Shown piece by piece: positions 7,340 through 53,064 of a stretch of 64,000 nucleotides of DNA. The stretch is from NCBI GenBank assembly GCA_019651595.1, contig BOYQ01000006.1, positions 44,044 through 108,043 on the forward strand. The letters run 5' to 3'. Positions within the stretch are counted from its first letter, which is position 1. Every line of letters starts with the position of its first letter. The DNA comes from Candidatus Poseidoniales archaeon (GTDB lineage: Archaea; Thermoplasmatota; Poseidoniia; Poseidoniales; Poseidoniaceae). Position numbers and translations under genes: made by a program. The notes beneath the pieces were generated by a model, which saw only the letters and a program-made list of their open reading frames with translations, was not told the DNA's origin and did no database searches.

Positions 7340-8065
7340 ATGGCGAAGAAGAAAGGCGGGTTCGGTCGGTTCCTCGGCGCCATCACTGGAACGCCCTACG
7401 AGCGTCTGCTGAAGCAAATCGACAAGCTCGTCGACCAGTTTGACGACGACGATGAGGAACTCGCCAACCAACTCGAGGCGATGGTCGACCAGGCCGGCGA
7501 TGCCTACGAGGAAGAGAGCATTGACGAGGAAGAACACGATCTCATCATCGAAGCCATCGAAGAGGCCGACCCTGAGGGACGTGTGTTCGGTAAACTCGGC
7601 TCCGAAGAGGACGCCTTCTACGCCGGTGACGTCCCCGACGCCCCGGAACTCAAGCGCGAAAAGCGTGCCAACCTTGACGATTTGATGCGCGCCAAGGGCG
7701 ACGAATTCACCGGCAGTTTTGGCCGTGAAGAATTCGAAGAGTTCCGTGAGCGCATGACCGATGAATTCTACCAGGAATCGGACAACGCCATTCGTCAGGG
7801 CGACCACGAAGCCGAGATCCGCACCACCAACCGTGTGTTCGGCGGTGCAGAGGACGATGTCGACGACGCCAAGCGCCGCATCGTTGAGGAGACCGGCATG
7901 GCCGACCCAGCTGCCCAACCCGAGCCCGAACCCGAGGAAGAGGAAGAGTATGATGACAACTATTCCATTGACGAAGACGGCGTGGAATGGTTCGAAGACG
8001 AGGACGGCTACTGGTGGTATCGAGAGGAAGGTCAAACCGAGTGGCAGCCTTACGATGAGGAGTAG
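7340..8065 (+). CDS. highly acidic cytoplasmic protein ending in a Trp-rich WW/DUF2510-like module
   Basis: Start MAKKKGGFGRF. The sequence is long and D/E-rich. The C-terminus is DGVEWFEDEDGYWWYREEGQTEWQPYDEE. Confidence 0.65.
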   Translation: MAKKKGGFGRFLGAITGTPYERLLKQIDKLVDQFDDDDEELANQLEAMVDQAGDAYEEESIDEEEHDLIIEAIEEADPEGRVFGKLGSEEDAFYAGDVPDAPELKREKRANLDDLMRAKGDEFTGSFGREEFEEFRERMTDEFYQESDNAIRQGDHEAEIRTTNRVFGGAEDDVDDAKRRIVEETGMADPAAQPEPEPEEEEEYDDNYSIDEDGVEWFEDEDGYWWYREEGQTEWQPYDEE

Positions 8066-8067
8066 GG

Positions 8068-9471
8068 ATGAATTCCGCCGAGCATGAAGTCAACCAAAAA
8101 CGTCAATTTTGGGGCTTGTTGCTGGTTCCTTGCCTCGTTTTCTCCAACGTGCTTATTGCTCTAAACTGGGAGATTGATGACATCACTTGTTCATCGGATG
8201 GCGACTTCACCGCCTCCGGCTCAATCACCCTGGAAGGTGTTGAGTACGACGTTTACACCTTCAGCTACGACGCCCTTGATTCGGGTGGGAATTACAGGTC
8301 TGGAGATGGGGAATGCGAATTAAGCGACTGGGACGTTCGCACGGCCGATGAAATCGACCTTTTGATTCGAATAGGCGGATACAACGCAAGAGATGCATGT
8401 TCCTTAGAGGGCGACAGCGAGTGCGACGGCGCCGTCGATCAAGATGATACAAGGTGGATTCCCATGGGCTATGGGAGCCAACGGGAGAGTCTTGCCCTTG
8501 CGGGATACCTTGCCTTTGACGACGGCGGGTGGTTTGGCGACGGTTCTTTTTTGGCCGCAGTGGAGCCTGGCATTGAGATCACCGATTTCGAGGTTGATAT
8601 TCGCCCGTTCGATGATATCCTCTCCCCACTCGTTTACTCCGTCTTCCTCACGCCCGTTGCTCTCTGGTTTGTTAACCGGTGGGCGAAGACCAACCGCCAG
8701 CCTCACCCTCGACCGAGCGCCATTGTGTTTGGTAAAAACGTCCTCAAGGTCGCTGTCGTGCACGGATTATCGTTCACCAGCCTCATCCTTCTCGATGAGA
8801 CTCTTTCCGGTGTTGCGCTTTTCGCCCTCGTACCTCTCATATTGCTGACGCCCTCTCTGTTGGTGTATGCCGAGCGAAAGCGCCGCCTCTCCAGAGTGTG
8901 GACCTCGATTTTTGTTTTCCTTCTCGTCCCGATCCAAGTGGTGCTGCTCTTTATTGCGGGTCAGGGCGGCCCCCTTGGCTGCCATGCTTTCCTTACTGCA
9001 CCCGAGGTGAACCCTCTTGACACGCATCCGTCAATGGTCTACTACCTCTGGCTCGGCAGCCATGTGCCTCTGCTCTGGCACTACTTGACGGCTCGCCGCC
9101 TGCAACACCCACTGCTATACACCATCGTCATCCCTGTGCTCTTCGTTTTCCTCATTGACATGAGCATCAGTCACACAGCGATGCTCGCGGGCTACGGAGA
9201 ACCTGATGATTGTTCGGAGTACCAAAGTGCGTCCATTCGATACACCATTGGAACGGTGAGCCTCCTTCTCCTCGCCTGCACCATGACGCTGGCACGCCGC
9301 TACCACAGGGCACGCCGCACGGATTCGGATTCAGACGCTGAGGCCTCGGTTGTCCATGCGCCCTTGAGTCGCGAGGAAACGCTGCGGCAGGCTCAAGCGA
9401 TGGGACTTGAACTAAGCGATGATGGGTTGTCTTGGGTTCCTATGAACACGAAACGCCCTCCCTATCCGTAG
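8068..9471 (+). CDS. hypothetical multi-pass membrane protein with Cys-rich extracellular N-domain; tail ends KRPPYP
   Basis: ATG lies 2 nt after the upstream stop. About 8 hydrophobic helices. Lower GC than neighbours: about 45% in the first 100 nt by hand count, against about 62% at 2430-2529. Confidence 0.65.
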   Translation: MNSAEHEVNQKRQFWGLLLVPCLVFSNVLIALNWEIDDITCSSDGDFTASGSITLEGVEYDVYTFSYDALDSGGNYRSGDGECELSDWDVRTADEIDLLIRIGGYNARDACSLEGDSECDGAVDQDDTRWIPMGYGSQRESLALAGYLAFDDGGWFGDGSFLAAVEPGIEITDFEVDIRPFDDILSPLVYSVFLTPVALWFVNRWAKTNRQPHPRPSAIVFGKNVLKVAVVHGLSFTSLILLDETLSGVALFALVPLILLTPSLLVYAERKRRLSRVWTSIFVFLLVPIQVVLLFIAGQGGPLGCHAFLTAPEVNPLDTHPSMVYYLWLGSHVPLLWHYLTARRLQHPLLYTIVIPVLFVFLIDMSISHTAMLAGYGEPDDCSEYQSASIRYTIGTVSLLLLACTMTLARRYHRARRTDSDSDAEASVVHAPLSREETLRQAQAMGLELSDDGLSWVPMNTKRPPYP

Positions 9472-41317: not shown

Positions 41318-43834
41318 ATGGCCGGTCGAGTTGCCATCCTGCTCGTCCTCGCCCTCGCGCTGATTCATCTGCCGTTGGTGAGCGCCGACGATGCCCCCGC
41401 CAGCGCCAACGGGCTGACGGACGGTGTGTCGTCAAGCGGGTACGTTTGCGACCCTGACGGGTGCTCTCCAAACGACAAGCGCGACTACTGGAAAATTCAA
41501 GGGAAAATGGGCGATATCGTCCAAGTCACCTTTTCGGGCAGCATGAGCAACGCTGCGTGGTGGTGCCCCGGCGACGGTTGGGAAGGGACCTTCACCATGG
41601 GTTCGGTTTCCCAGAACGTCGATGACGGTTCCCCAACCGCCACCCTGTCCACGACGCTTTCCACGGCGGGTGAGATTCTGATCAAGGTTGAAGGCAAAAA
41701 TTCGTGGTGTAACGACGGTTTTGATTACACCCTCACGCCCTCGATTGACAAAACCAACCGCGACTCTGATGAGGACGGCTTCGTTGACACCGAAGACGAC
41801 TGCACCCTCCTGGTCGGTGCGTCCACCAACGACCGAAAAGGATGCACCGACTCCGACGGCGACGGTTGGTCGGACCCCGACAGCGGATGGGGCGTACAAA
41901 ACGGCGCTGATGCTTTTGCAAGTGAATCCTCACAATGGTTGGACTCGGACAACGACGGCTACGGGGACAACCTCGACGGCTACCAGGGCGACCACTGTCA
42001 ATTCAGCCGAGGCTACTCCACGTCCGACCGGTACGGATGCGTGGATTCCGATGGCGACTCTTATTCCGACCCGGACCCGGGAGGACTGAACGGCTACGAA
42101 GCGTGGTTCGCCCACCCTGTCGGCAAAGCCGATGCCTTTGCTTACGACGCCTCTCAGTGGAACGACACCGACGAGGACGGCTACGGCGACAACTGGGACG
42201 ACCCTTCGCTGAACGCCACGCGGCAGGTCTGGGACATCGGTCAGTTTGTCGACAACGCCACACAGCCGGATGCTTGCCCGTTCATCCGAGGAGGTTCCTC
42301 CTCTGACCGGTTTGGATGCATTGACAGCGACTTGGACACGTACTCCGACGGGGATGAAAACTGGACCATCGACAACGGTTCGGACGCCTTCCCGCTCGAA
42401 CCAACGCAATGGCTCGATTCGGACCGGGACGGATGGGGTGACAATCAAACGCTGGGAGCTCAGCGCATCGACGATTTCCCCTTCAACCCGACCCAGTGGC
42501 GAGACACGGACCGAGACGGGTGGGGCGACAACCAAACCTACGGCGCCACCCAGGTCGACGATTTCCCCTTTGTACCCTCCCAATACAGGGACACGGACGG
42601 TGACGGGTACGGTGACAATCTTACCGGATTCGAGGGCGATGTTTGCATGCAATCCACGCCCGAGGAAGTGGACTCAGGCTGGATCAGTCGCTACGACCGT
42701 CTGGGGTGCCGGGACGTCGACAAGGACGGGTTTTCGGACCCCACCGACCTGTGGTCGGCTCACCCGGCTGGGTTTGCCGATGCTTTCCCTGACGATCCTT
42801 CCCAGTGGCACGACACGGACGACGACGGTTACGGCGACAACCTCGAGTATTTCGACGGACAAACGTGGCGGTCCTCCTACCGTCCCGACGGCTGCCGCAC
42901 CACGCAGGGCCAATCGACGTTCGACCGCTGGGGTTGCCCCGACGGGGACGGAGATGGTTGGTCCGACCCGACCTCCATTTGGCTGGCCAGCCCGGGCGGT
43001 TCGGGGGATGCATGGCCTGAGGACCCCACCCAGTGGCACGACACCGACGGTGATGGCCGTGGCGATAATCCACGAGGGAACACAGCCGACGTTTGTCCTT
43101 CTATAGCAGGAACCTCGGTTGGACCTTCCTTCGGTGGCGATCGCTGGGGGTGCAAGGACACCGACGGTGACGGCTGGTCCGACCTCGGTGATGCCTTCAT
43201 TCACGAACCCACGCAATGGCGAGATTCCGATGGAGACGGTTATGGCGACCGCATCGACGGTCATCAGGGCGATGCGTGCCCCGAGACCCGCGGGACCTCC
43301 CTCCTCGACCGATTGGGATGCCGGGACACCGACGGCGATGGTTGGTCCGACCCCAGCGAATCGTGGCCGGCTCATCCGTTTGGCACCGGGGATGCCTTCC
43401 CCACCGAAGCGCTGCAGTGGAAGGACACCGACCAAGACGGCTTTGGGGACCTCCCGCTGGGGGCGTTCCGGGATGACTGCCCCACCCAAGCTGGGTCCTC
43501 CGAGCGCGACCTCCAAGGTTGTCCGGACGACAACGGGGACGGTTGGTCAAACCAATACGGTGAATTTGCCGCTGCCATTGCTATCATGGGCGAGGACCCT
43601 GCGGCTTCCTGGCTCACGTACGCCGTGATGGGCGCTGGTTTCCTGCTGGGGGCATTGGGAGCGTTGCTGGTCAAAGGCACTCGTCGCCGCCGAGAACTCC
43701 TCGAACAACTCATTCACGACAAGGAAACGGAACTGATGAATTCGCCCGGCATTGGCGAACCCGTTCCGACCTTGATCCCGCTCGACCAACTGCCGCCCTT
43801 GCCCGCATCCGAAGGAGGTGAGCAAGATGGGTGA
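41318..43834 (+). CDS. secreted thrombospondin type-3-like Ca-binding repeat protein with C-terminal TM anchor and PPLP-containing tail
   Basis: Signal peptide and a PPC-like N-module. About 8 bipartite units GC.D.DGDGWSDP...ADAFP.DP.QW.D.D.DGYGDN. A TM helix follows, then KGTRRRR... and a tail ending ...DQLPPLPASEGGEQDG. Confidence 0.85.
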   Translation: MAGRVAILLVLALALIHLPLVSADDAPASANGLTDGVSSSGYVCDPDGCSPNDKRDYWKIQGKMGDIVQVTFSGSMSNAAWWCPGDGWEGTFTMGSVSQNVDDGSPTATLSTTLSTAGEILIKVEGKNSWCNDGFDYTLTPSIDKTNRDSDEDGFVDTEDDCTLLVGASTNDRKGCTDSDGDGWSDPDSGWGVQNGADAFASESSQWLDSDNDGYGDNLDGYQGDHCQFSRGYSTSDRYGCVDSDGDSYSDPDPGGLNGYEAWFAHPVGKADAFAYDASQWNDTDEDGYGDNWDDPSLNATRQVWDIGQFVDNATQPDACPFIRGGSSSDRFGCIDSDLDTYSDGDENWTIDNGSDAFPLEPTQWLDSDRDGWGDNQTLGAQRIDDFPFNPTQWRDTDRDGWGDNQTYGATQVDDFPFVPSQYRDTDGDGYGDNLTGFEGDVCMQSTPEEVDSGWISRYDRLGCRDVDKDGFSDPTDLWSAHPAGFADAFPDDPSQWHDTDDDGYGDNLEYFDGQTWRSSYRPDGCRTTQGQSTFDRWGCPDGDGDGWSDPTSIWLASPGGSGDAWPEDPTQWHDTDGDGRGDNPRGNTADVCPSIAGTSVGPSFGGDRWGCKDTDGDGWSDLGDAFIHEPTQWRDSDGDGYGDRIDGHQGDACPETRGTSLLDRLGCRDTDGDGWSDPSESWPAHPFGTGDAFPTEALQWKDTDQDGFGDLPLGAFRDDCPTQAGSSERDLQGCPDDNGDGWSNQYGEFAAAIAIMGEDPAASWLTYAVMGAGFLLGALGALLVKGTRRRRELLEQLIHDKETELMNSPGIGEPVPTLIPLDQLPPLPASEGGEQDG
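41830..43560 (+). repeat. coding tandem repeats (TSP3-like bipartite units, about 60 aa each)
   Basis: Recurrent gacggcgacgg / cagtgg...gacaccgac DNA strings encode DxDxDGxxDxxD loops. Confidence 0.7.
43099..43108. repeat. near-copy TTCTATAGCA (9/10) inside the TSP3 CDS
   Basis: Read as CCT TCT ATA GCA (PSIA). Confidence 0.6.
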
Positions 43835-45118
43835 GGGTCGCTGGCGTGCCGTGCTGCTGGCGCTGATGATGACCGTGCTGCTCCTCCCGCTGGGCTCCGT
43901 GAGCGCTGAGGAAACCATGGAGGAGCGACTGGCGGCTGAGGGGTTGACCTTGCTCGCTTTGCGCAACGACACCATCGACACCGACCAAGACGGCGACATC
44001 GATGCGGTGCGCGTGGTCATCGTTCTGAATTCTACCGCCACCTCCAACGAACTCATCGTCAAACTTCGGGGCTTGCACAAGGAGCGAGAAGTGCTTGAAA
44101 CGCAGGAGGTTGCCTTCGTTGGTCAAACCAACATCACCGTCGTTTACGATGCGTGGTCCAAAGGAGAACACAACCTGCGACTGGATTTCTTTGATGCCAA
44201 CGGTGACTTCATCGCCTCCAACCCGCTTCCAACGTTCATGCTGACGCCCGCTCTCCGGGTGCCGCAGGTGCTGCTTGCCTTGAACGCAGGCGACATGCTC
44301 CAGACCGGTGAGGCGTGTGAGATCACCCGTACTTTTGCTGACGAAACGGGTCCACGATACGGCGAAACGGGGGTTCGAACGTTCACCGGCGCTCCCTTCA
44401 GCGTGCTTGACTCACAGGAGACCCTCGATCAGGCATCATGGCCGCCGGCGATTACGAGCTGAAGGAAACCTACCGAAAGGGCCCTTGGGTCAAACCGCAG
44501 AAAGCACCTGAATTTCACCATCGAGAACCGCCCTGCCCCCGCCTTCAGGCTGATTGCCTCCGGCCATGAAACACCACGGAAACCCCTGCAGCGTCGCATG
44601 GAGCTGACGGACGGTCGACCGCTGGACGGCTTGACGATGGTGTGGCGGGTCAAGGGAGGCGGAAAGCATCAACGCCACCGTTTACGACTGCTCCAACCTC
44701 CGGCCGGCGCTTATCTGATCCGCTGGAGGTCATCACGGACAAACTCATTTCCTCAACCGAGGCCATCAACCTGATTCGTCCCCCCGCCGAGGATTTGAGC
44801 GAGGACGAGCGTGCTGCTCTCCCTTCCATCTCGTTGGGTCCCGAGACGAGCACCGAGTCGGTTGGGTGGATGTCCATCGGTGTGCTCGCCCTTATCGTCT
44901 CCCTGTTGGTGTTCATCCTGCTGATTCGCAATCCTGATCCTGAACCCTTGGAACTGCCATCCCTCGGACCTACCCCGCAGGTGTTGCCGGACGGCTCACC
45001 CGACGCAGAGGGGTTGCCGACCACCGTGGACGACCAAGGGGTCTTGTGGCGGCAGCACCCCGACGGGGCGGTGGATTGGTGGGACCGTGACTGGAGCATC
45101 TGGCACAGGTGGGAGTGA
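43827..45118 (+). CDS. secreted/membrane-anchored accessory protein ending in a Trp-rich WW/DUF2510-like module; at least 4 frame changes between 44430 and 44720
   Basis: ATG 43827 overlaps the TSP3 gene stop (ATGGGTGA). Signal peptide. Fragments 43818-44462 and 44642-45118 are bridged by short stretches in other frames. TM helix WMSIGVLALIVSLLVFILLI. The tail ends ...DDQGVLWRQHPDGAVDWWDRDWSIWHRWE. Confidence 0.5.
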
Positions 45119-46017
45119 ATGAACGCTGTTGAAGCCATCCTCATCGGTGTTGTCAGCCTTGTTGCGGCGGTTGTCCTTCGTTTGATTTACGTCTGGTACA
45201 CCCGAATACGACCCCTTCAACCCTCGCTTGATTTGGAGTGGGCTGCGGACTGCAAACATTTGACGACCGCCACGGTCAACGGGTCGGCGTTGACCTTTCA
45301 CATGGTTCGAAATTTCACATGGCGCACGACCAAAGACCGGGACGAGGATTGGGAGGACGAAATCAGCGTGGATGCCGAGGACCTGAAAGACGTCTGGTTC
45401 ATCGTTGACCATTTCCACTCCATCAAGGGCTTGGCTCACACCTACCTCACGTTCGAATTTGGTTGTGGAACGTGCCTCTCGTTTTCGTTTGAATCGCGCC
45501 GAGAAAAGGGTGAACGCTACCATCCCTGGGACGGCCTCTGGCGCGCCTATGAGCTCTACCTCTTGGTTGGAACAGAGCGGGACGTGACGGGACTCAGAAC
45601 CCACGGAAGGGGCAACAAGGACTACATGTTTCGTGCCAACACCCCGCCCGAAAAAAACAGGGAACTTCTCTTCGCCATGGTCAAGAAACTCAACGACCTT
45701 GCCGTGAACCCCGAGTGGTACCATTCCCTTTGACGACATGCAACACGTCCATCGTCAACATTGTCAACGAAGTGACGCCGGGAAGGATTCCGTTTTTGTG
45801 GCGCAATTTCCTCCCGGGCTACACCCCAAAGGCAGCGTTTAATCTGAAACTCATCGAAGATTGGGGCGGCCTTGAGGAGACCCTTCGCAAGGCGAGGATC
45901 GACGAGAAAGCCCAAGCCTGGGACGGCGTTGAAGACTATTCGGCTATGCTTCGTTCGTTCCTGCCGCCTTCCAAGGCAGGTGGAGGGGATGAATCATCAT
46001 CAGGCGCCCGTGCTTGA
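45119..46017 (+). CDS. DUF4105 (Lnb N-terminal-like) domain membrane protein, one frame change near 45730
   Basis: ATG lies immediately after the upstream stop. N-terminal TM helix. ...PEWYHSL|(L)TTCNTSIVNIVNEVTPGRIPFLWRNFLPGYTP matches the YH.L..NC.T...N..P signature of DUF4105 as I recall it. Confidence 0.6.
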
Positions 46018-46609
46018 ACGAGAGTTGAACCTTGGGTCCAACGCTGGTGTTGTGAAGTCCACGTGATCCCATGGGCAGCGTCTCACCGCTGAGGCTGAAG
46101 GCTGCGCCTTCCAGCACCACCTCTTCTGCAACAGGCAGCGCAAACAGCGAGAATTCATCGCCAAGCTCAATTTCTATAGAATAAGTGACTCCGGGTGAAA
46201 AGAACCGGTACACGTGGGTGTGGCTGATGCACGTGATCCTCAGTGAAGAGGCGCCGCACGTGAGAAGGTTGGCCCATTCATGTTGCGGGTCCCCGCCGGT
46301 CGCTCCGACCACCCAGCACGCCGTGAACCCCTGCTCGTGAACCCAATCAATCGCCTTGCTCAAGTCATTGGCGTTTTGCTGAGGGCGCTCGACCACGGCA
46401 CCGCCTCTCGCCACGTGTTCGTCCAGCTGGTCCTGTTCGACGCTGTCCATGTCGCCCACCACGGCATCGGGCCTGAGACCATGCTCCAGGCACGTTGTCA
46501 GCGCTCCATCGCAAGCGATGATGGCAGCTGCTTCATCCGCCAACGCCAGCACCACCGCATCGGGGGCTCGCTCACCGCAGGCAAAGATGAGCGCCGTTTT
46601 GCCTGCCAC
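45944..46609 (-). CDS. thiamine pyrophosphokinase
   Basis: ACDGAL...RPDAVVGDMDSV, NDLSKAIDW, VVGATGGDPQHEWANL. Confidence 0.8.
   Translation of the reverse strand: MAGKTALIFACGERAPDAVVLALADEAAAIIACDGALTTCLEHGLRPDAVVGDMDSVEQDQLDEHVARGGAVVERPQQNANDLSKAIDWVHEQGFTACWVVGATGGDPQHEWANLLTCGASSLRITCISHTHVYRFFSPGVTYSIEIELGDEFSLFALPVAEEVVLEGAAFSLSGETLPMGSRGLHNTSVGPKVQLSFKHGRLMMIHPLHLPWKAAGTNEA
46172..46181. repeat. palindrome TTCTATAGAA (copy 3, inside thiamine pyrophosphokinase CDS)
   Basis: Exact 10-mer. Read as TAT TCT ATA GAA ATT (YSIEI). Confidence 0.9.
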
Positions 46610-46731: not shown

Positions 46732-49700
46732 ATGGCGACCGGTGATTTTCAAAACAATGGAATGAAAAGCATCGGCTTGGTTGTGCTGTTTCTTCTGTCC
46801 CTTCTCTCGCCCCTGTTGATGACGCCCACGTCATCGCCATCGCTGGATGAGGCTGACGCACCTGGGTTCACCGGTCCGTTCACGCAGGCCTCAGGTTACG
46901 GCCACGACTTCGCCGGAACGACCCTTGATGTCGACGGCCTCGTTCAGGTTTCGGTCCGTGAAGAGTCGATGCTCGACTTGTGGAGCACCGAGGTGTTGAA
47001 CCTCTCTTTTGGTGAGCATCACGGCACGCCCGACATGAAACTGACTCGGCACGACAAGGCACACTTTTGCTGGAGCACGCAGGAAGGCACGGTTCGAACC
47101 GCCGTTCATCGCCCCACCGGGCTTTGGACCACCACCCTCGTCGACTCCGTAGCGACCGCTACCGCAACGACGCTGGTGGACTGCGCCGTCGGCATCACCG
47201 CCAACGAACGACCGCGTGTGTTGTACGCTGACGGGGACGACCTCAAGATGGGGCGATACGCCGAGCAAAGCCAAACCTACTACGACGGCCCCCGATGGCA
47301 CACACGGACCATCATGGAAGACGTCGCTCCGACGCACCTCGCTCTTGACATCACGCCCGACGGCTTGGAGTGGGGCTTGATGCGCACCGATGCTGGTGCG
47401 CTGCATCAGGTGAATTTCAGCGGCGCCTACTGGACCGAGTACCTTCTGGACGCTGGTCCCGTCGGCGAGCGGTTCGAGTTGAAGGTGGACGACGATGGGG
47501 TCGCCCACGTGCTGTACTCCCGGACCGCCACCAATGAGGTGGTTCTTCTCCGCATTGATGGCATGGAGCGCGACCAGCGCATCCTGCTTCAGGACAACGA
47601 CCTCACGGACGTGCTCGGCATGGACTTGGACGCCAACAACATCGAACAGGTCGCCACGGCCACGCAAGACGGCTCATCGTTCTCAATCAACCTGATCCGC
47701 TCGCTGGCAGGCCAAGACACCGGGCGAGTCAACCCCGTGCCATCAACGGCCATCGAAGATGCCGATGACGAAACGGAAGGCCTCATGCTCATGGGCGACC
47801 TGAACGACGACGGTTTCGATGATTTCGTGGTTTCAACTCCCGAGGCCGACCTTGTCTCGATGACCGACAACGGGCGTGTTGCGGTCTATTACGGCTCGAG
47901 CAGCGGCCTTTCCGAACTTCCTGACATGATTTACGCCGGGGCATCCGACGGTGCACAGTTTGGCTTCGGCATGGACCTCGGGGATTTCAACAACGATGGC
48001 GTTCTCGACCTGGCCGTCGGTTCACCGGGCTGGGCTCCAGCGGATGACCCAACGACTCGCCACGGGATGGTCCACGTCTACCTCGGCAACGCCTCCGGTG
48101 TGTCAGCCTCGCCGTGGTCGAACCTGACGGGCGTTGCCAACGAATCCCTTGGCAGTGCCGTTGCGGCGCTTCACCACGCCAACAGCGGTGATGGCCTCGC
48201 CGCCACCGCTCGAAACCACACCGTGCAGGTCAGTCCTACGCAGGTCGACGACGGGAAAGTGAACCTCTACACGGGGAATGAGAGCGGCCTCCATCCGATG
48301 CGAAACCTCACGCAAACCGAAAACGGGGGCTTGTTCGGTCGGTCGCTCGAAGCGTGCGATGTGAACAACGATGGCTTTGACGAACTGATCGTGGGCAACA
48401 CCGGGACGTACGACGCCCCTGCCACCTACTCCTCCGTGGAGTACTTTTTCGGTTCAACGTCAGGCTACAACGGCACGGCCGACCACACCGTGGCGTCCAT
48501 CACCCAAGGACGGCTGTTTGGGTTGAACATCGCTTGTGTGGGCGACTTGAACGGCGACGGGTTCGACGAACACATTGTTTCGGAACCGTTCAACTCAACG
48601 CAGAGCTTTGGCGCAGGCACGCTCTGGCTCTTCGAAGGCACCGACGGGGCTCTGCCAGGTGACGCCGACTGGCAGTATTTCCCACCGCCCAACAGCCGCA
48701 TCGGTGAAGCGATGGCAGGCGCGGGCGACATCAACGAAGACGGCTACGGGGACGTTTACATCTCCAGCCGAATGGGGAACGCTGCGGGACGGATTGAGAT
48801 TTTCCTCGGTTCACCCAACGGCATCAGCACGGACCGCCAGTTGCTCGCCGAAGGCAACACGAGCGAACGCCTTGGTTTCCGAATGGCCGGCGACGGCGAC
48901 GTTGACGGCGACGGCCTCAGCGACCTCTTCTACTCCATGCGTTCCGGCGAGCGAGGCACATCGTACGGCCTGACGTACCTGATGTTGAGTGAGCAGGATT
49001 GGGAATCGATCTCCTTTGAACGACAAGGCACCATCACCGACGTCAAGTTGGGGACAGCCGGTCGTGGAGAGACCAGCATCGTCTACACACACGCCGATGC
49101 TCTTCGCCTTCACGTTTCCAAACTTGAACACATGAACGATGGAACGCCCGGTGGGCAATGGGTTGACCAAACGGTCGTGCGCCTCAACACCACGCATCTC
49201 GGCGTGGCGTTCGCCGTCCGCTCATCCGGTCAACCGATGGTGCTGGTGGAGAACACCTCGGCCATGATGCTGTCCTCCACGTCTTCCATGACGGCCCTCC
49301 AACAGGCCGTCGCAACGACGGGAACCATGGGGCAGTGGTTGGGCTCCACCATCACGCATGACAACAAACAAGTGCTTGCTTACACATCAGGTCTCGGCAA
49401 CCAAATCTTCGCAGCGACGCAATCAGCAACCGGATGGTCGAGTGAACTGGTCCGAACCAGCGCCGTGTTGGCCTCGCCAATCGAGGTTCTCATCGACCAG
49501 GGCAACAACCCGGTTTTGTTGTACAGGCACAACGCCACTGACCAACTGGAAATGGCGATAGGCGGAGCAAGTTGGGTCTTGGAAGCCCTCGGTGATGAGG
49601 GGGATGCCCGCTCTTTGCAGCACCCCGCAGTGATGCTGGCAAACCAATCGATAGCCGTTGGTTTGGTCGCTTCAAACGGTACCGGGACCAACCTCGCTGT

Positions 49701-52700
49701 GTGGATTCACGACGGCAATGAACTCTCGAAGCACGAAGTGGCAAACCACACCGACCTCAACAGCGAGCTGGGGCTTGTTACGCTCGCTAACGGTTCCATC
49801 CTGTTGGCGGCGCTAACGTCAGACGGTGCCCTAACCGTTTACGAACAGTGGCCCGCCAGCACCGGTTGGGTTGAACACACCCTGCCTCAACCCAGCGGTG
49901 TCGCCAACGAGTACCGACTCGACCTCAAGGGCGGTGATTCACCCTTGCTGGCCGTTCGCGGCAACGCCATCTCCTCTATTTACGGCCTGAACGAAAGCGG
50001 GGCGTGGGTCTCCCTTGCTGAGCGACCGGCTGCCGCCGTTGATGGCGCATGGGACGTGTTGCACGCCGGCGATCATCTGGTCTTGATGACCAGCGACCCC
50101 GTCTCGCAACACCTCACGTTCAACAGTCTTGAACTCAACACCACCACGGGTGAGCCCAACCAGTGGATGTCGACAACGTTTGGTGATGTTCGAACGAATC
50201 ACCCCGTTCACGCCAAACTCGATTCGAACGGGACCGTCCACATGGCTTACTGGGACGAGGTCAACGACGACGTCATCATGCTCCGCCTCTACGGCGATGC
50301 AGACCGCGACCTCGTCTTCGACCTCATCGACGCCATGCCGAGCGTCGGTGACCAGTGGATGAACAGCGACGGCGACAACTACGGTGACAACCCACTCGGA
50401 CCGTTGCCCGATGCTTGCCCCACGGATGCGGGCCCGTCGTCGTTCATCTTCCAAGGCTGCGATGATTACGACACCGACGGCTACAGGGACACCATTGACG
50501 GATGTGACGACCAGGGCGGCACGTCGTGGATCGACCGATTCGGGTGCGAGGACCTCGACCAGGACGGCTGGTCCGACAACGGTGCTTCCTACTTCGACGG
50601 TGACGTCTTCAAGAGCAACTGGAAACAGGCTCTGGACACCGACGGCGACGGCTTCGGCGACAATCACGGCGTGGACTGCTGTGCGGTTCCCGTTTACGAC
50701 CCCAACGCCGGTCCGGGCGATTTGTTCCCCTACCTCGCCTCACAATACAGCGACTATGACGGTGATGGCTACGGCGACAACGACACCGACACCGTTCACG
50801 GTGATTACTGCCCGTGGGACTTTGGGACGTCCTTCCGAGACCGAAATGGATGCCTTGACACCGACGGTGATGGCGCCAGCGACCCGTCGGGCGAGGGGAC
50901 GATTTTCGAATGGAACGCCACCGAGCACGGCGCCGATGTGTGGCCCTTTGACCCCACGCAGTGGCAAGACACCGACGGCGACGGCTTTGGCGACAATCAA
51001 TCCGAGAACGCCACCAACCCGGACCGCTTCCCCATGCGAATCGCCGCCGCCAACGACACCGATGACGACGGCTACGCCGACAATTGGACCGAGTTTTACA
51101 ACGGCACCAACGCCCAAGGCATCTTCATTGACGCCTGCCCCACCGAATGGGGCAACTCCACTCGACGGAACCTCACCGTCTACGCCTACGGCTGCCCCGA
51201 TGCCGACGGGGACGGCTACACCGACGCGTACGTGTTTGACGTCGATCCTGACACGGGCCTGCGCATCAACGAACTCGGCGACGCCTTCCCGGACGAGCGA
51301 ACCCAGTCCAAGGACCGGGACGGCGATGGGTTTGGCGACAATCCAGTGGGCGCCAACGGCGATCAGTGCCCTGAGGTCCCCGGCGTGCTGAACGGCACCG
51401 ACGGCGTGGGTTGTCGGGTTATCGATCTCAACGATGATGACGGCGACGGCCTGATCAACGAACTGGATTTGATTTGCCCCAACACGCCCTTGGGTGAGCA
51501 GGTCAACGCCGACGGTTGTTCCCAATCCGAACTCGACGACGACGAGGACGGGGTCAACAACAACCTTGACCTCTGCCCCGACACGCCCGCAGGGCTTGCC
51601 GTTGACGCTGAAGGTTGCAGCGAAGCGCAGCGAACATCGGACACCGACGGTGACGGATTGAACGACCCTGAGGACACGTGCCCGGACACCGAACCCGACG
51701 CTGAGGTCGATGAGAACGGCTGTTCTCAAGCGCAACGCGACACCGACGGCGACGGCCTGTCCGACCTTGACGATGCGTGCGACGACACCCCTCCTGGGTT
51801 CCCCATTCTCGCCAACGGTTGCACCGATGAAAGCGCCCTTGACACCGATCTTGACGGTGACGGGTACAGTGGCGCTTACGCCTACGACATCGACCCCGTC
51901 ACGGGGCTCCATGTCAATCAAACGGGGGACGCCTTCCCCAGCGATGCGACGCAGTGGTTTGACCAGGACGGCGACGGCTACGGTGACAACCCCTCGCCGG
52001 CCAACAACGCCGACGATTGCCCCGCTGAAACCGGCACGTCCTACATCGATTTCCTGGGTTGTTATGACGACGGCGACGGTTATCGCGACGAAAACGAGCC
52101 TGAAGCCCTCCGTGGTGATCCCACCCAGTGGCGAGATTCAGATTTCGACGGGTTTGGTGACAACTGGGGCAATCCGTCATGGAACGCCACGCGGGACCCC
52201 TCGTGGCCCGGCCAGTTCGTGGAGGGTGCAACCAACGCCGATTTCTGTCCGAAGACCACGCCCGGCTTGAGCGTCGACGAGGAAGGGTGCCACATCTCCC
52301 AACGAGACAGCGACGCCGACGGCGTGATGGACGATGCTGACAACTGCCCCAACGAACCGAAGGGCGTTGACGGATACGATGACGGTTGTCCATACGTACC
52401 GCTGTCCGGCGACGGCGAGGAAGGCCTGTTCGGCGTGGACGCCGGCATCATCATGTTGGCTCTTGGCGGCCTCGGTGGCTTGGCCATCGTCAGCCTGCTG
52501 GTCGTGCGACTTCTGCGGAGGGAGGACGACGACGAGGACGACGAGTACGATGATTTCTACGACGACGAGGATGAGGAGGAAAGTTTCCTTGACCGACTCG
52601 ACCGGACGACCTCCGTTCAGCCTCAACGCTCCCGTTCCGTGCCTGAACGTCGCTCCAACCCAGGTCCTTCCAGCGGTCCAAGTGGCCCTGCCCCAAGTCG

Positions 52701-53064
52701 AACCGCTCCGGTGCGCAAGCGAGGTCCCCCCGGTGGTCCTGCCAAAACCGGCGGCCCCCCGGGTCGCAGCCCGAGCAAGAAACCCGCGCCCAAAGCGGCA
52801 CCTGAACCTCAAAAGGCGGGCAAGAAGAAGGTGGTCGCCGACGAGGACCCTGGAAAGAAAGTCCGCAAGGCCAAGATCAACGTTGATTTGTCCATCTTTG
52901 AGGACTGGCAAACCGACGACCGCGAAGCCGCCGTGGAATGGGTGGTCGGTGCGTTTGCTGACGGCGACGAAGAGCGAACGGTGTTGATGCAACTTCAGGA
53001 AACGGGATGGACGGCGAAGCAATCCCGTGCGATTTGCGACCTGGCAAAGAACCATCGAGGTTGA
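46732..53064 (+). CDS. 2110-aa surface protein: beta-propeller-like region, seven FG-GAP (integrin-alpha-like) blades, second propeller-like region, long TSP3-like array, TM helix, 180-aa cytoplasmic tail
   Basis: Uninterrupted ORF with signal/anchor at the N-terminus. FG-GAP blades are GDLNDDGFDDFVV, GDFNNDGVLDLAV, CDVNNDGFDELIV, GDLNGDGFDEHIV, GDINEDGYGDVYI and GDVDGDGLSDLFY, plus one degenerate blade. Many DxDxDGxxDxxD loops. TM helix GIIMLALGGLGGLAIVSLLVV followed by RLLRRE. Confidence 0.9.
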   Translation: MATGDFQNNGMKSIGLVVLFLLSLLSPLLMTPTSSPSLDEADAPGFTGPFTQASGYGHDFAGTTLDVDGLVQVSVREESMLDLWSTEVLNLSFGEHHGTPDMKLTRHDKAHFCWSTQEGTVRTAVHRPTGLWTTTLVDSVATATATTLVDCAVGITANERPRVLYADGDDLKMGRYAEQSQTYYDGPRWHTRTIMEDVAPTHLALDITPDGLEWGLMRTDAGALHQVNFSGAYWTEYLLDAGPVGERFELKVDDDGVAHVLYSRTATNEVVLLRIDGMERDQRILLQDNDLTDVLGMDLDANNIEQVATATQDGSSFSINLIRSLAGQDTGRVNPVPSTAIEDADDETEGLMLMGDLNDDGFDDFVVSTPEADLVSMTDNGRVAVYYGSSSGLSELPDMIYAGASDGAQFGFGMDLGDFNNDGVLDLAVGSPGWAPADDPTTRHGMVHVYLGNASGVSASPWSNLTGVANESLGSAVAALHHANSGDGLAATARNHTVQVSPTQVDDGKVNLYTGNESGLHPMRNLTQTENGGLFGRSLEACDVNNDGFDELIVGNTGTYDAPATYSSVEYFFGSTSGYNGTADHTVASITQGRLFGLNIACVGDLNGDGFDEHIVSEPFNSTQSFGAGTLWLFEGTDGALPGDADWQYFPPPNSRIGEAMAGAGDINEDGYGDVYISSRMGNAAGRIEIFLGSPNGISTDRQLLAEGNTSERLGFRMAGDGDVDGDGLSDLFYSMRSGERGTSYGLTYLMLSEQDWESISFERQGTITDVKLGTAGRGETSIVYTHADALRLHVSKLEHMNDGTPGGQWVDQTVVRLNTTHLGVAFAVRSSGQPMVLVENTSAMMLSSTSSMTALQQAVATTGTMGQWLGSTITHDNKQVLAYTSGLGNQIFAATQSATGWSSELVRTSAVLASPIEVLIDQGNNPVLLYRHNATDQLEMAIGGASWVLEALGDEGDARSLQHPAVMLANQSIAVGLVASNGTGTNLAVWIHDGNELSKHEVANHTDLNSELGLVTLANGSILLAALTSDGALTVYEQWPASTGWVEHTLPQPSGVANEYRLDLKGGDSPLLAVRGNAISSIYGLNESGAWVSLAERPAAAVDGAWDVLHAGDHLVLMTSDPVSQHLTFNSLELNTTTGEPNQWMSTTFGDVRTNHPVHAKLDSNGTVHMAYWDEVNDDVIMLRLYGDADRDLVFDLIDAMPSVGDQWMNSDGDNYGDNPLGPLPDACPTDAGPSSFIFQGCDDYDTDGYRDTIDGCDDQGGTSWIDRFGCEDLDQDGWSDNGASYFDGDVFKSNWKQALDTDGDGFGDNHGVDCCAVPVYDPNAGPGDLFPYLASQYSDYDGDGYGDNDTDTVHGDYCPWDFGTSFRDRNGCLDTDGDGASDPSGEGTIFEWNATEHGADVWPFDPTQWQDTDGDGFGDNQSENATNPDRFPMRIAAANDTDDDGYADNWTEFYNGTNAQGIFIDACPTEWGNSTRRNLTVYAYGCPDADGDGYTDAYVFDVDPDTGLRINELGDAFPDERTQSKDRDGDGFGDNPVGANGDQCPEVPGVLNGTDGVGCRVIDLNDDDGDGLINELDLICPNTPLGEQVNADGCSQSELDDDEDGVNNNLDLCPDTPAGLAVDAEGCSEAQRTSDTDGDGLNDPEDTCPDTEPDAEVDENGCSQAQRDTDGDGLSDLDDACDDTPPGFPILANGCTDESALDTDLDGDGYSGAYAYDIDPVTGLHVNQTGDAFPSDATQWFDQDGDGYGDNPSPANNADDCPAETGTSYIDFLGCYDDGDGYRDENEPEALRGDPTQWRDSDFDGFGDNWGNPSWNATRDPSWPGQFVEGATNADFCPKTTPGLSVDEEGCHISQRDSDADGVMDDADNCPNEPKGVDGYDDGCPYVPLSGDGEEGLFGVDAGIIMLALGGLGGLAIVSLLVVRLLRREDDDEDDEYDDFYDDEDEEESFLDRLDRTTSVQPQRSRSVPERRSNPGPSSGPSGPAPSRTAPVRKRGPPGGPAKTGGPPGRSPSKKPAPKAAPEPQKAGKKKVVADEDPGKKVRKAKINVDLSIFEDWQTDDREAAVEWVVGAFADGDEERTVLMQLQETGWTAKQSRAICDLAKNHRG
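50330..52430 (+). repeat. coding tandem repeats (TSP3-like Ca-binding loops)
   Basis: Dozens of D-x-D-x-D-G-x-x-D-x-x-D motifs, with recurring QW.D.D.DG.GDN and CP.T units. Confidence 0.7.

Follow-up and report, generated by a model that had tools for sequence, protein, structure and literature searches.

In this work, we describe a pair of adjacent genes from a Candidatus Poseidoniales archaeon, contained in a stretch of 64,000 nucleotides (hereafter, the window; GenBank assembly GCA_019651595.1, contig BOYQ01000006.1, positions 44,044 to 108,043 of the forward strand). The first gene encodes a membrane protein with thrombospondin-type-3-like (TSP3) repeats, the second a partner membrane protein, whose cytoplasmic tail ends in a small tryptophan-rich domain. 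What is conserved at this locus is the operon as a unit, rather than the two tails as a pair. In the reading we favor, to which we give a little less than an even chance, the two genes belong to a translationally coupled Poseidoniales operon, encoding two type I surface proteins of one adhesion or envelope complex and featuring a new intracellular protein-binding domain. The original prediction, made from the window alone, had focused on the tails, proposing that the tryptophan-rich ending is a WW/DUF2510-like module which docks the LPPLP peptide of the TSP3 tail.

The junction between the two genes is indeed that of a coupled pair, as had been proposed. The ATG of the partner, at 43827, lies within the 8-nucleotide sequence ATGGGTGA and overlaps the stop codon of the TSP3 gene, with the Shine-Dalgarno sequence GGAGGTGA six bases upstream. 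In related loci the commonest arrangement is an 8-nucleotide overlap of the ATGnnTGA form, seen at 40 of the 75 unique junctions, and most junctions have a Shine-Dalgarno sequence of the GGAGG type. Each of the 91 unique pairs collected from Marine Group IIa and IIb (MGIIa and MGIIb) genomes has a TSP3-repeat gene directly before the partner. LPPLP, the ATGGGTGA overlap and the tryptophan-rich ending, whose coordinates were all borne out by the sequence, are conserved in over 100 Poseidoniales loci related to this one. As a side observation, GGAGGTGA is encoded by conserved GGE codons close to the C-terminal end of the TSP3 protein, and it is probably the ribosome-binding site, not a function of the protein, that keeps these residues conserved.

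The architecture of the TSP3 protein was found to be the predicted one. Its ectodomain contains 15 calcium-loop motifs of the DxDx[DN]G type, and is followed by a transmembrane (TM) helix, the basic KGTRRRR stretch and a 53-residue tail (Table 1). Both members of the pair being type I membrane proteins, their tails should be intracellular, in agreement with the orientation originally assigned to them.

A frame problem had been suspected for the partner, which appears in the window as two open reading frames (ORFs), 43827-44462 and 44642-45118. The suspicion was correct. The contig of a closely related strain (L033, ENA k119_767234), 98.3% identical to the window at the nucleotide level over a 7.2-kb alignment, encodes an intact partner of 432 residues, P0061, and a base-by-base comparison places 10 missing and 2 extra bases in a single short region of the window. 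Across this region substitutions occur at the normal rate of 1.5-2%, and the 7.2-kb alignment contains only one other gap, before 45731. Since the indels are confined to about 280 bp, the substitution rate is normal and the remaining gene is intact, the break is most likely a sequencing or assembly error, and a pseudogene was rejected on these same grounds. In every orthologous locus examined the partner is a single ORF of 420-463 residues with the Trp-motif ending, and TM helix and tail therefore belong to the same gene as the signal peptide. A local sequence error at this position would lead annotators to call either two fragments or a pseudogene.

The structure of the intact partner was modeled with AlphaFold2, using an alignment of 45 sequences. 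In the model of P0061 (mean pLDDT 82.7) a signal helix is followed by three beta-sandwiches spanning residues 40-321 (pLDDT about 90); residues 350-370 form a TM helix, and the tail contains four short strands (pLDDT 79-87). One signal peptide and one TM helix had been noted at first as well. No Pfam sequence match was found for the ectodomain. Searched with Foldseek, its model retrieves the BIg domains of SiiE (2yn5, E=1.8e-8), MpIBP (5irb) and strings of FN3 domains, with E around 1e-8. With its tandem beta-sandwiches and their significant structural matches, the ectodomain qualifies as an adhesin stalk of the Ig-like/BIg/FN3 kind. As in the stalks formed by SiiE BIg domains and MpIBP region II, tandem Ig-like domains stand here beside calcium-binding repeats at the cell surface; in contrast to the giant bacterial adhesins, the protein is archaeal, has only three such domains and is anchored by a C-terminal TM helix. 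The combination of calcium-loop repeats and an Ig-like stalk fits a role in adhesion or in the envelope, and genes with thrombospondin repeats have been proposed earlier as adhesion factors of MGII (PMC6461757).

We infer that coupled translation would supply the two subunits in matched amounts, for assembly into one complex. The first subunit would contribute about 15 thrombospondin-type-3-like calcium loops, the second three Ig-like stalk domains, a TM helix and a Trp domain of about 40 residues, while a DUF4105/Lnb_N membrane protein would usually be the third product of the operon. The Trp domain would act as a conserved intracellular handle for protein binding, its ancestral ligand being something different from the PPLP tail. 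Later, in the MGIIa lineage, to which this Poseidonia-like archaeon belongs, the TSP3 subunit would have gained a tail of 50 residues carrying the motif phi-P-x3-phi-P-[PL]-[LIP]-P, whose simplest role would be that of an added intracellular clasp onto the aromatic domain of the partner.

The ending of the partner, DDQGVLWRQHPDGAVDWWDRDWSIWHRWE at 45029-45115, conforms to the family core D..G..WR...DG..[DE]W[WYF]D.....W. Within this core the D, G, W, G, D and W columns are invariant, and the R, D and W ones nearly so, among MGIIa and MGIIb homologues which are 24-41% identical overall. Conservation of the Trp motif in orthologues, on which the first proposal depended, is hence not in question. 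When the tail alone was modeled (51-residue query, 44963-45115, with the family alignment), AlphaFold2 predicted an antiparallel meander formed by the strands TTV, LWRQ, VDWWD and IWHRW, with a pLDDT of 89.4 and a pTM of 0.68. The expectation of a small beta module was upheld to the extent that a folded sheet is predicted; the sheet, however, is modeled with four strands, and its best structural matches are not WW domains.

Sequence searches did not place the domain in any of the proposed families. No WW, DUF2510 or GYF match was found by hmmscan of the 158-residue C-terminal ORF against Pfam at E<=1, nor a WW, DUF2510 or GYF/GYF_2 match with isolated tails and 21 diverse family tails at E<=10; NCBIfam, searched for WW, DUF2510 and GYF, gave none either. 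No WW chain was retrieved by hmmsearch of all PDB sequences with the tail profiles, including A4 and A7: the three profiles produced only weak matches to hairpin repeats, namely designed trefoils and propellers, a cold-shock protein and a choline-binding autolysin. Compared with a WW mini-alignment, of lead value only, the tail scored a probability of 4.6% by hhalign and at most 4.7 bits by hmmsearch with filters off. Similarly, Foldseek found nothing for the tail model at E<=0.001, and no WW domain within the top 50 matches.

At the level of the pattern there is a likeness to WW domains. As in WW domains (PF00397, whose class II/III ligands are PPLP or poly-Pro), a tiny, aromatic-rich antiparallel sheet has an aromatic pair in its central strand, with flanking Trp residues and DG turns, and an LPPLP-type motif is found nearby. 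The last three strands and their loops are WW-like in length, and module and proline motif occur together in most MGIIa-type pairs. WW domains, however, are three-stranded, with signature tryptophans 20-23 residues apart and a proline three residues after the second one. In the Trp domain, which occupies the very C-terminal end of a membrane protein from an archaeon, four strands are predicted, the invariant Trp pair is 18 residues apart (alignment A7), and the MGIIa form ends in W-H-R-W-E, with no proline and hence no W-x-x-P; only the MGIIb forms, often ending in W-x-P-[FY], recall that signature. DUF2510 (PF10708) is a small Trp-rich module, found mostly in actinobacterial membrane proteins. 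It shares with the Trp domain a similar motif style, W...P.G....[RY]WWD...W, and the location at the terminus of a membrane protein; the taxon and the architecture of the host protein are different, and none of the 21 diverse tails matched its Pfam model.

A prokaryotic proline reader of the WW type was first claimed in 2025, in a loop of a mycobacterial enzyme: the C-terminal element of EL4 in the M. tuberculosis protein O-mannosyltransferase is WW-like, and has been proposed to recognize proline-rich peptides (PMC12331936). Such a bacterial precedent lends some credit to the WW assignment, the shared features being an aromatic beta element in a prokaryote and a proline-reading logic not exclusive to eukaryotes. 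EL4, however, is a periplasmic enzyme loop which selects glycosylation substrates, while the Trp domain is predicted to be free-standing, cytoplasmic and C-terminal. Four predicted strands, a Trp spacing of 18 and null searches led us to reject the WW/DUF2510 assignment; we regard as very unlikely that the ending is a module of this type whose function is to dock the PPLP tail, in a eukaryote-like adaptor pair, also because the domain is conserved where the proline motif is absent. The description that suits the Trp domain best is that of a new, small beta-meander rich in aromatic residues, which judging from the model is WW-like in size and composition only. It belongs to no existing family and is previously undescribed: no description of either the gene pair or the tail domain in MGII was found in the literature, and no mention of DUF2510 in the literature searched.

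The best structural matches of the tail, all with E>=0.4, are single beta-propeller blades, from TLAP2, Scone, tectonin 2, HIRA, Kelch and RACK1. The closest, T. gondii TLAP2 (PDB 9ya3), superposes with a root-mean-square deviation (rmsd) of 1.1 A over 32 residues, at 28% identity and a probability of 0.98, its E-value being non-significant. Blades of the tectonin, Kelch, WD40 and TLAP2 type are meanders of four strands like the Trp domain, superposing on it over 31-35 residues with an rmsd of 1.1-2 A, and they have in common with it the DG turns and a second-strand Trp. Weak sequence matches, to Kelch, to Tcp10_C and to designed repeats of propellers or trefoils, point in the same direction. 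The domain might then be a single blade-like unit that self-associates, so that several tails would build a ring or stack beneath the membrane and cluster the surface complexes, with the proline motif unrelated to it, which would also account for its conservation independently of that motif. Propellers, however, are made of 4-8 tandem blades, while the domain is present in a single copy per chain; any four-stranded meander resembles a blade, no Foldseek E-value is significant, and the monomer model is confident alone. We consider this alternative quite unlikely.

Distribution of the family is informative about the function of the domain. A HMMER search of 1.84 billion representatives for the partner family resulted in 178 matches at E<=0.001. 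All full-length members with a named organism are Poseidoniales, including Thalassarchaeaceae (MGIIb), and the tail core is recognizable in every full-length member inspected (A7), the most degenerate being that of the P0291 fusion. A neighbor-joining tree of the 91 unique pairs of partner and upstream gene separates two groups by the ending of the partner, W-x-[RK]-W in the MGIIa type and W-x-x-[FY] in the MGIIb type. Of the 62 MGIIa-type pairs, 57 have the proline motif. None of the 29 MGIIb-type pairs has it, although all of them keep the Trp domain; their TSP3 tails are either 2-24 residues long, or 79-88 residues long without any PxxP. Two basal MGIIa-type branches (L040 and L123) feature the Trp domain but not the motif, and in two other loci (L115 and L119) the motif has been secondarily lost, while the domain is retained. 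By this phyletic pattern, the Trp domain predates the proline motif and has the wider distribution of the two, the motif having been gained once. Because the domain is kept in motif-free lineages, both MGIIb-type and basal MGIIa-type, docking of PPLP is not its general or ancestral function.

Two further observations concern these families. Three distant members (P0279, P0283 and P0291) are fusions of 836-1316 residues, whose partner-like Ig domains, TM helix and Trp-type tail come after an M6-type metalloprotease (HExxH) and additional domains, and their tails have Pro-rich stretches of their own. Short, motif-free TSP3 tails of the MGIIb type (L045-L055, L065, L077, L086 and L097) end in acidic-aromatic sequences, such as EVDFFE, EVDFIEQD and GGEF.

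The proline motif itself is specific and well conserved. Its consensus, phi-P-x3-phi-P-[PL]-[LIP]-P, occurs in forms such as IPLDQLPPLP, IPLAELPPIP and LPDLAIPLPPPP, and all 67 matches in 1.2 Mb of Poseidoniales DNA fall within TSP3-repeat ORFs. Residues L37, L40, P41 and P44 are invariant among MGIIa-type TSP3 tails (alignment A3). In the 98.3% identical L033 strain LPPLP is replaced by LPPPP, and the fourth position of the motif therefore tolerates L, I or P even between strains.

Within the reading of a coupled operon for one surface complex, it is plausible, at a probability well below even, that in MGIIa the TSP3-tail motif is an additional ligand of the Trp domain, and forms a tail clasp. 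The stronger form of this idea, in which the MGIIa Trp domain specifically binds phi-P-x3-phi-P-P-L-P on its operon partner, as an independently evolved archaeal proline reader of the cytoplasm with a different ligand in MGIIb, is doubtful. Cytoplasmic tail clasps are known from integrin-type heterodimers. As in integrins, two single-pass subunits have short tails which could meet under the membrane; unlike in that case, no sequence relationship is involved.

Several points weigh against the picture of an adhesion complex held together by its tails. The TSP3 protein has no Pfam match at E<=1, searched either whole or as two fragments, and its only NCBIfam match, to throspo3_MtsD (E=4e-5, 21.9 bits), is weak and well under the family cut-off of 800, so that its putative TSP3 identity is based on motifs and a sub-threshold match. 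The operon structure is what suggests a heterodimer, in which the two proteins would bind each other through ectodomain or tail. Both tails are net acidic. In the tail-only model a Pro-rich segment of the partner itself, GPTPQVLPDGSP, forms beta-bridges to the sheet, and the putative site may thus be occupied in cis. Finally, the motif was gained in one phylogenetic event, which deprives its joint occurrence with the W-x-[RK]-W ending of any statistical weight. Co-variation between variants of motif and domain was also considered as evidence and dropped, because sequences are too conserved and the pattern tracks phylogeny.

The ending of the partner had also been reported to share a pattern with an unrelated acidic protein of the window, ending in DGVEWFEDEDGYWWYREEGQTEWQPYDEE at 7976-8062. 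A regular expression for the shared pattern, which was defined after seeing both sequences, finds these two C-termini and no others in window ORFs totalling about 21,000 residues, against 0.003 matches in a shuffled proteome, confirming the observation as such. In 1.2 Mb of related DNA it finds only the two sets of orthologues, plus one chance match inside a TSP3 ectodomain. Conservation of the acidic ending extends to about 470 Poseidoniales homologues, and both endings are kept in hundreds of orthologues. Homology between the two is not demonstrable, and the comparisons made were rejected as evidence for it: the acidic protein is not among the top window matches listed for the partner-tail hidden Markov model (E<=100), and hhalign assigns the comparison a probability of 16%, or of 72% with a diverse profile in a shifted hairpin register. 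Since MGIIb-type partner tails, which end in W-x-P-[FY]-[EQ], resemble the WQPY of the acidic protein, a distant relationship is possible on sequence grounds. A second pair of Trp module and proline tail was looked for next to the acidic protein, where a multi-pass membrane protein (8068-9471) ends in a PPxY-like KRPPYP, ...DDGLSWVPMNTKRPPYP; it was dropped, this neighbor not being conserved in the orthologous loci L034-L037.

Two more explanations are to be weighed at this point. The Trp ending might do no more than anchor the protein at the membrane interface, or be rich in Trp by chance and have no specific fold, and its similarity to the acidic protein would be a coincidence: Trp-rich segments are often found at membrane interfaces, and homology of the two endings is non-significant. 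With 11 D/E residues against 4 R, however, the module is strongly acidic and ill-suited to a lipid surface, the fold is confidently predicted, the D..G and DG turn residues are invariant order-wide, and the rarity of the shared pattern in shuffled sequence speaks against coincidence; we find this explanation barely credible. Alternatively, the two tails might never touch, each recruiting a cytoplasmic partner of its own, with for example the acidic protein reading the proline motif, and the Trp domain binding its own ligand in all Poseidoniales. A ligand other than PPLP must indeed exist in MGIIb-type lineages, and the acidic ending is strongly conserved, is the only other one of its pattern in the window and, with W-x18-W-x-P, is more WW-like. 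The acidic protein, however, is unlinked, lying about 36 kb away in a variable neighborhood, and its module matches no WW profile, which makes the alternative unlikely.

Table 1. Features of the TSP3/partner operon and of the unlinked acidic protein (window positions)
Feature	Position	Strand	Basis or content
TSP3-repeat type I membrane protein, 838 aa	41318..43834	+	ORF translation, motif count
Signal peptide of TSP3 protein	41318-41386	+	N-terminal beta-rich region follows
TM helix of TSP3 protein, WLTYAVMGAGFLLGALGALLV	43610..43672	+	Sequence; conserved in orthologues
KGTRRRR after TSP3 TM helix	43673-43693	+	Sequence
Cytoplasmic tail of TSP3 protein, 53 aa	43673..43831	+	Basic juxtamembrane stretch, charged helix-like ELLEQLIHDKETELM, proline motif
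Proline motif IPLDQLPPLP	43775..43804	+	LPPLP itself at 43790-43804
TSP3-tail peptide carrying the proline motif, PVPTLIPLDQLPPLPASE			
Coupling junction	43813..43834	+	Shine-Dalgarno GGAGGTGA at 43813-43820, overlap ATGGGTGA at 43827-43834
Partner gene, about 432 aa when intact	43827..45118	+	Signal peptide at 43827-43907, three Ig/FN3-like domains, TM helix, cytoplasmic tail
Indel burst in partner gene	44444..44721	+	Base-by-base comparison with L033: 10 bases missing, 2 extra in the window
TM helix of partner, WMSIGVLALIVSLLVFILLI	44867..44926	+	Sequence; AlphaFold2 helix of P0061
Cytoplasmic tail of partner, 64 aa	44924..45115	+	Includes MGIIa-specific Pro-rich segment LGPTPQVLPDGSPD at 44963-45004 (tail-only model: pLDDT 76-91, beta-bridges to the sheet)
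Trp-rich C-terminal domain, GLPTTVDDQGVLWRQHPDGAVDWWDRDWSIWHRWE	45011..45115	+	Predicted four-stranded antiparallel beta-meander
Lnb_N (DUF4105) membrane protein, third gene of the cluster, 299 aa when intact	45119..46018	+	Pfam PF13387
Unlinked acidic cytoplasmic protein, 241 aa from MAKKK	7340..8065	+	Look-alike Trp pattern YSIDEDGVEWFEDEDGYWWYREEGQTEWQPYDEE at 7961-8062

The gene directly following the stop codon of the partner, which lies downstream of the pair in most related loci, scores 64.4 bits for Lnb_N/DUF4105 (PF13387, E=1.3e-17), above the Pfam gathering score of 22.2; Lnb is a lipoprotein N-acyltransferase of Bacteroides (PMC11573676). In the window this gene is also split (45119-45733 and 45715-46017), one C being missing before 45731, while the L033 orthologue is 299 residues long. 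A scan with the Lnb_N gene identified 32 loci in synteny, and almost all of them belong to metagenome-assembled genomes (MAGs) of Poseidonia or Poseidoniaceae. Three contigs binned as Verrucomicrobiales or Flavobacteriales (L025, L031 and L032) carry the Poseidoniaceae gene cluster at 58-79% protein identity, which is probably due to binning contamination of those public MAGs.

Convergent to the cluster, a thiamine pyrophosphokinase gene is located on the minus strand (45944-46609), and is a conserved marker of synteny in both MGIIa-type and MGIIb-type loci. It is followed, at 46732-53064, by a type I surface protein of 2110 residues, with FG-GAP repeats, as in integrin-alpha-like propellers, and 18 TSP3-like loops, which matches Pfam TSP_3 below the cut-off. 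Its cytoplasmic tail, of about 190 residues, contains an acidic run, a low-complexity stretch rich in Pro, Gly and Lys, and a small C-terminal segment which by eye looks helical. The pair seems to lie in an island of large surface proteins whose tails are elaborate.

No archaea of the surface ocean are more abundant than Poseidoniales, which remain uncultured. Their attachment to particles and algae has been inferred from gene lists alone, in which "thrombospondin" genes are cited as adhesion markers. One such gene is, order-wide, always paired with an Ig-domain partner which had escaped annotation. A domain of 40 residues and a peptide of 10 residues offer a concrete target for asking whether archaea recognize proline motifs under the membrane. 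If they do so here, an archaeal cytoplasmic reader of proline motifs would be new, and would provide the tail clasp of a surface heterodimer, comparable to integrin tails or to the WW/PPLP adaptors of eukaryotes.

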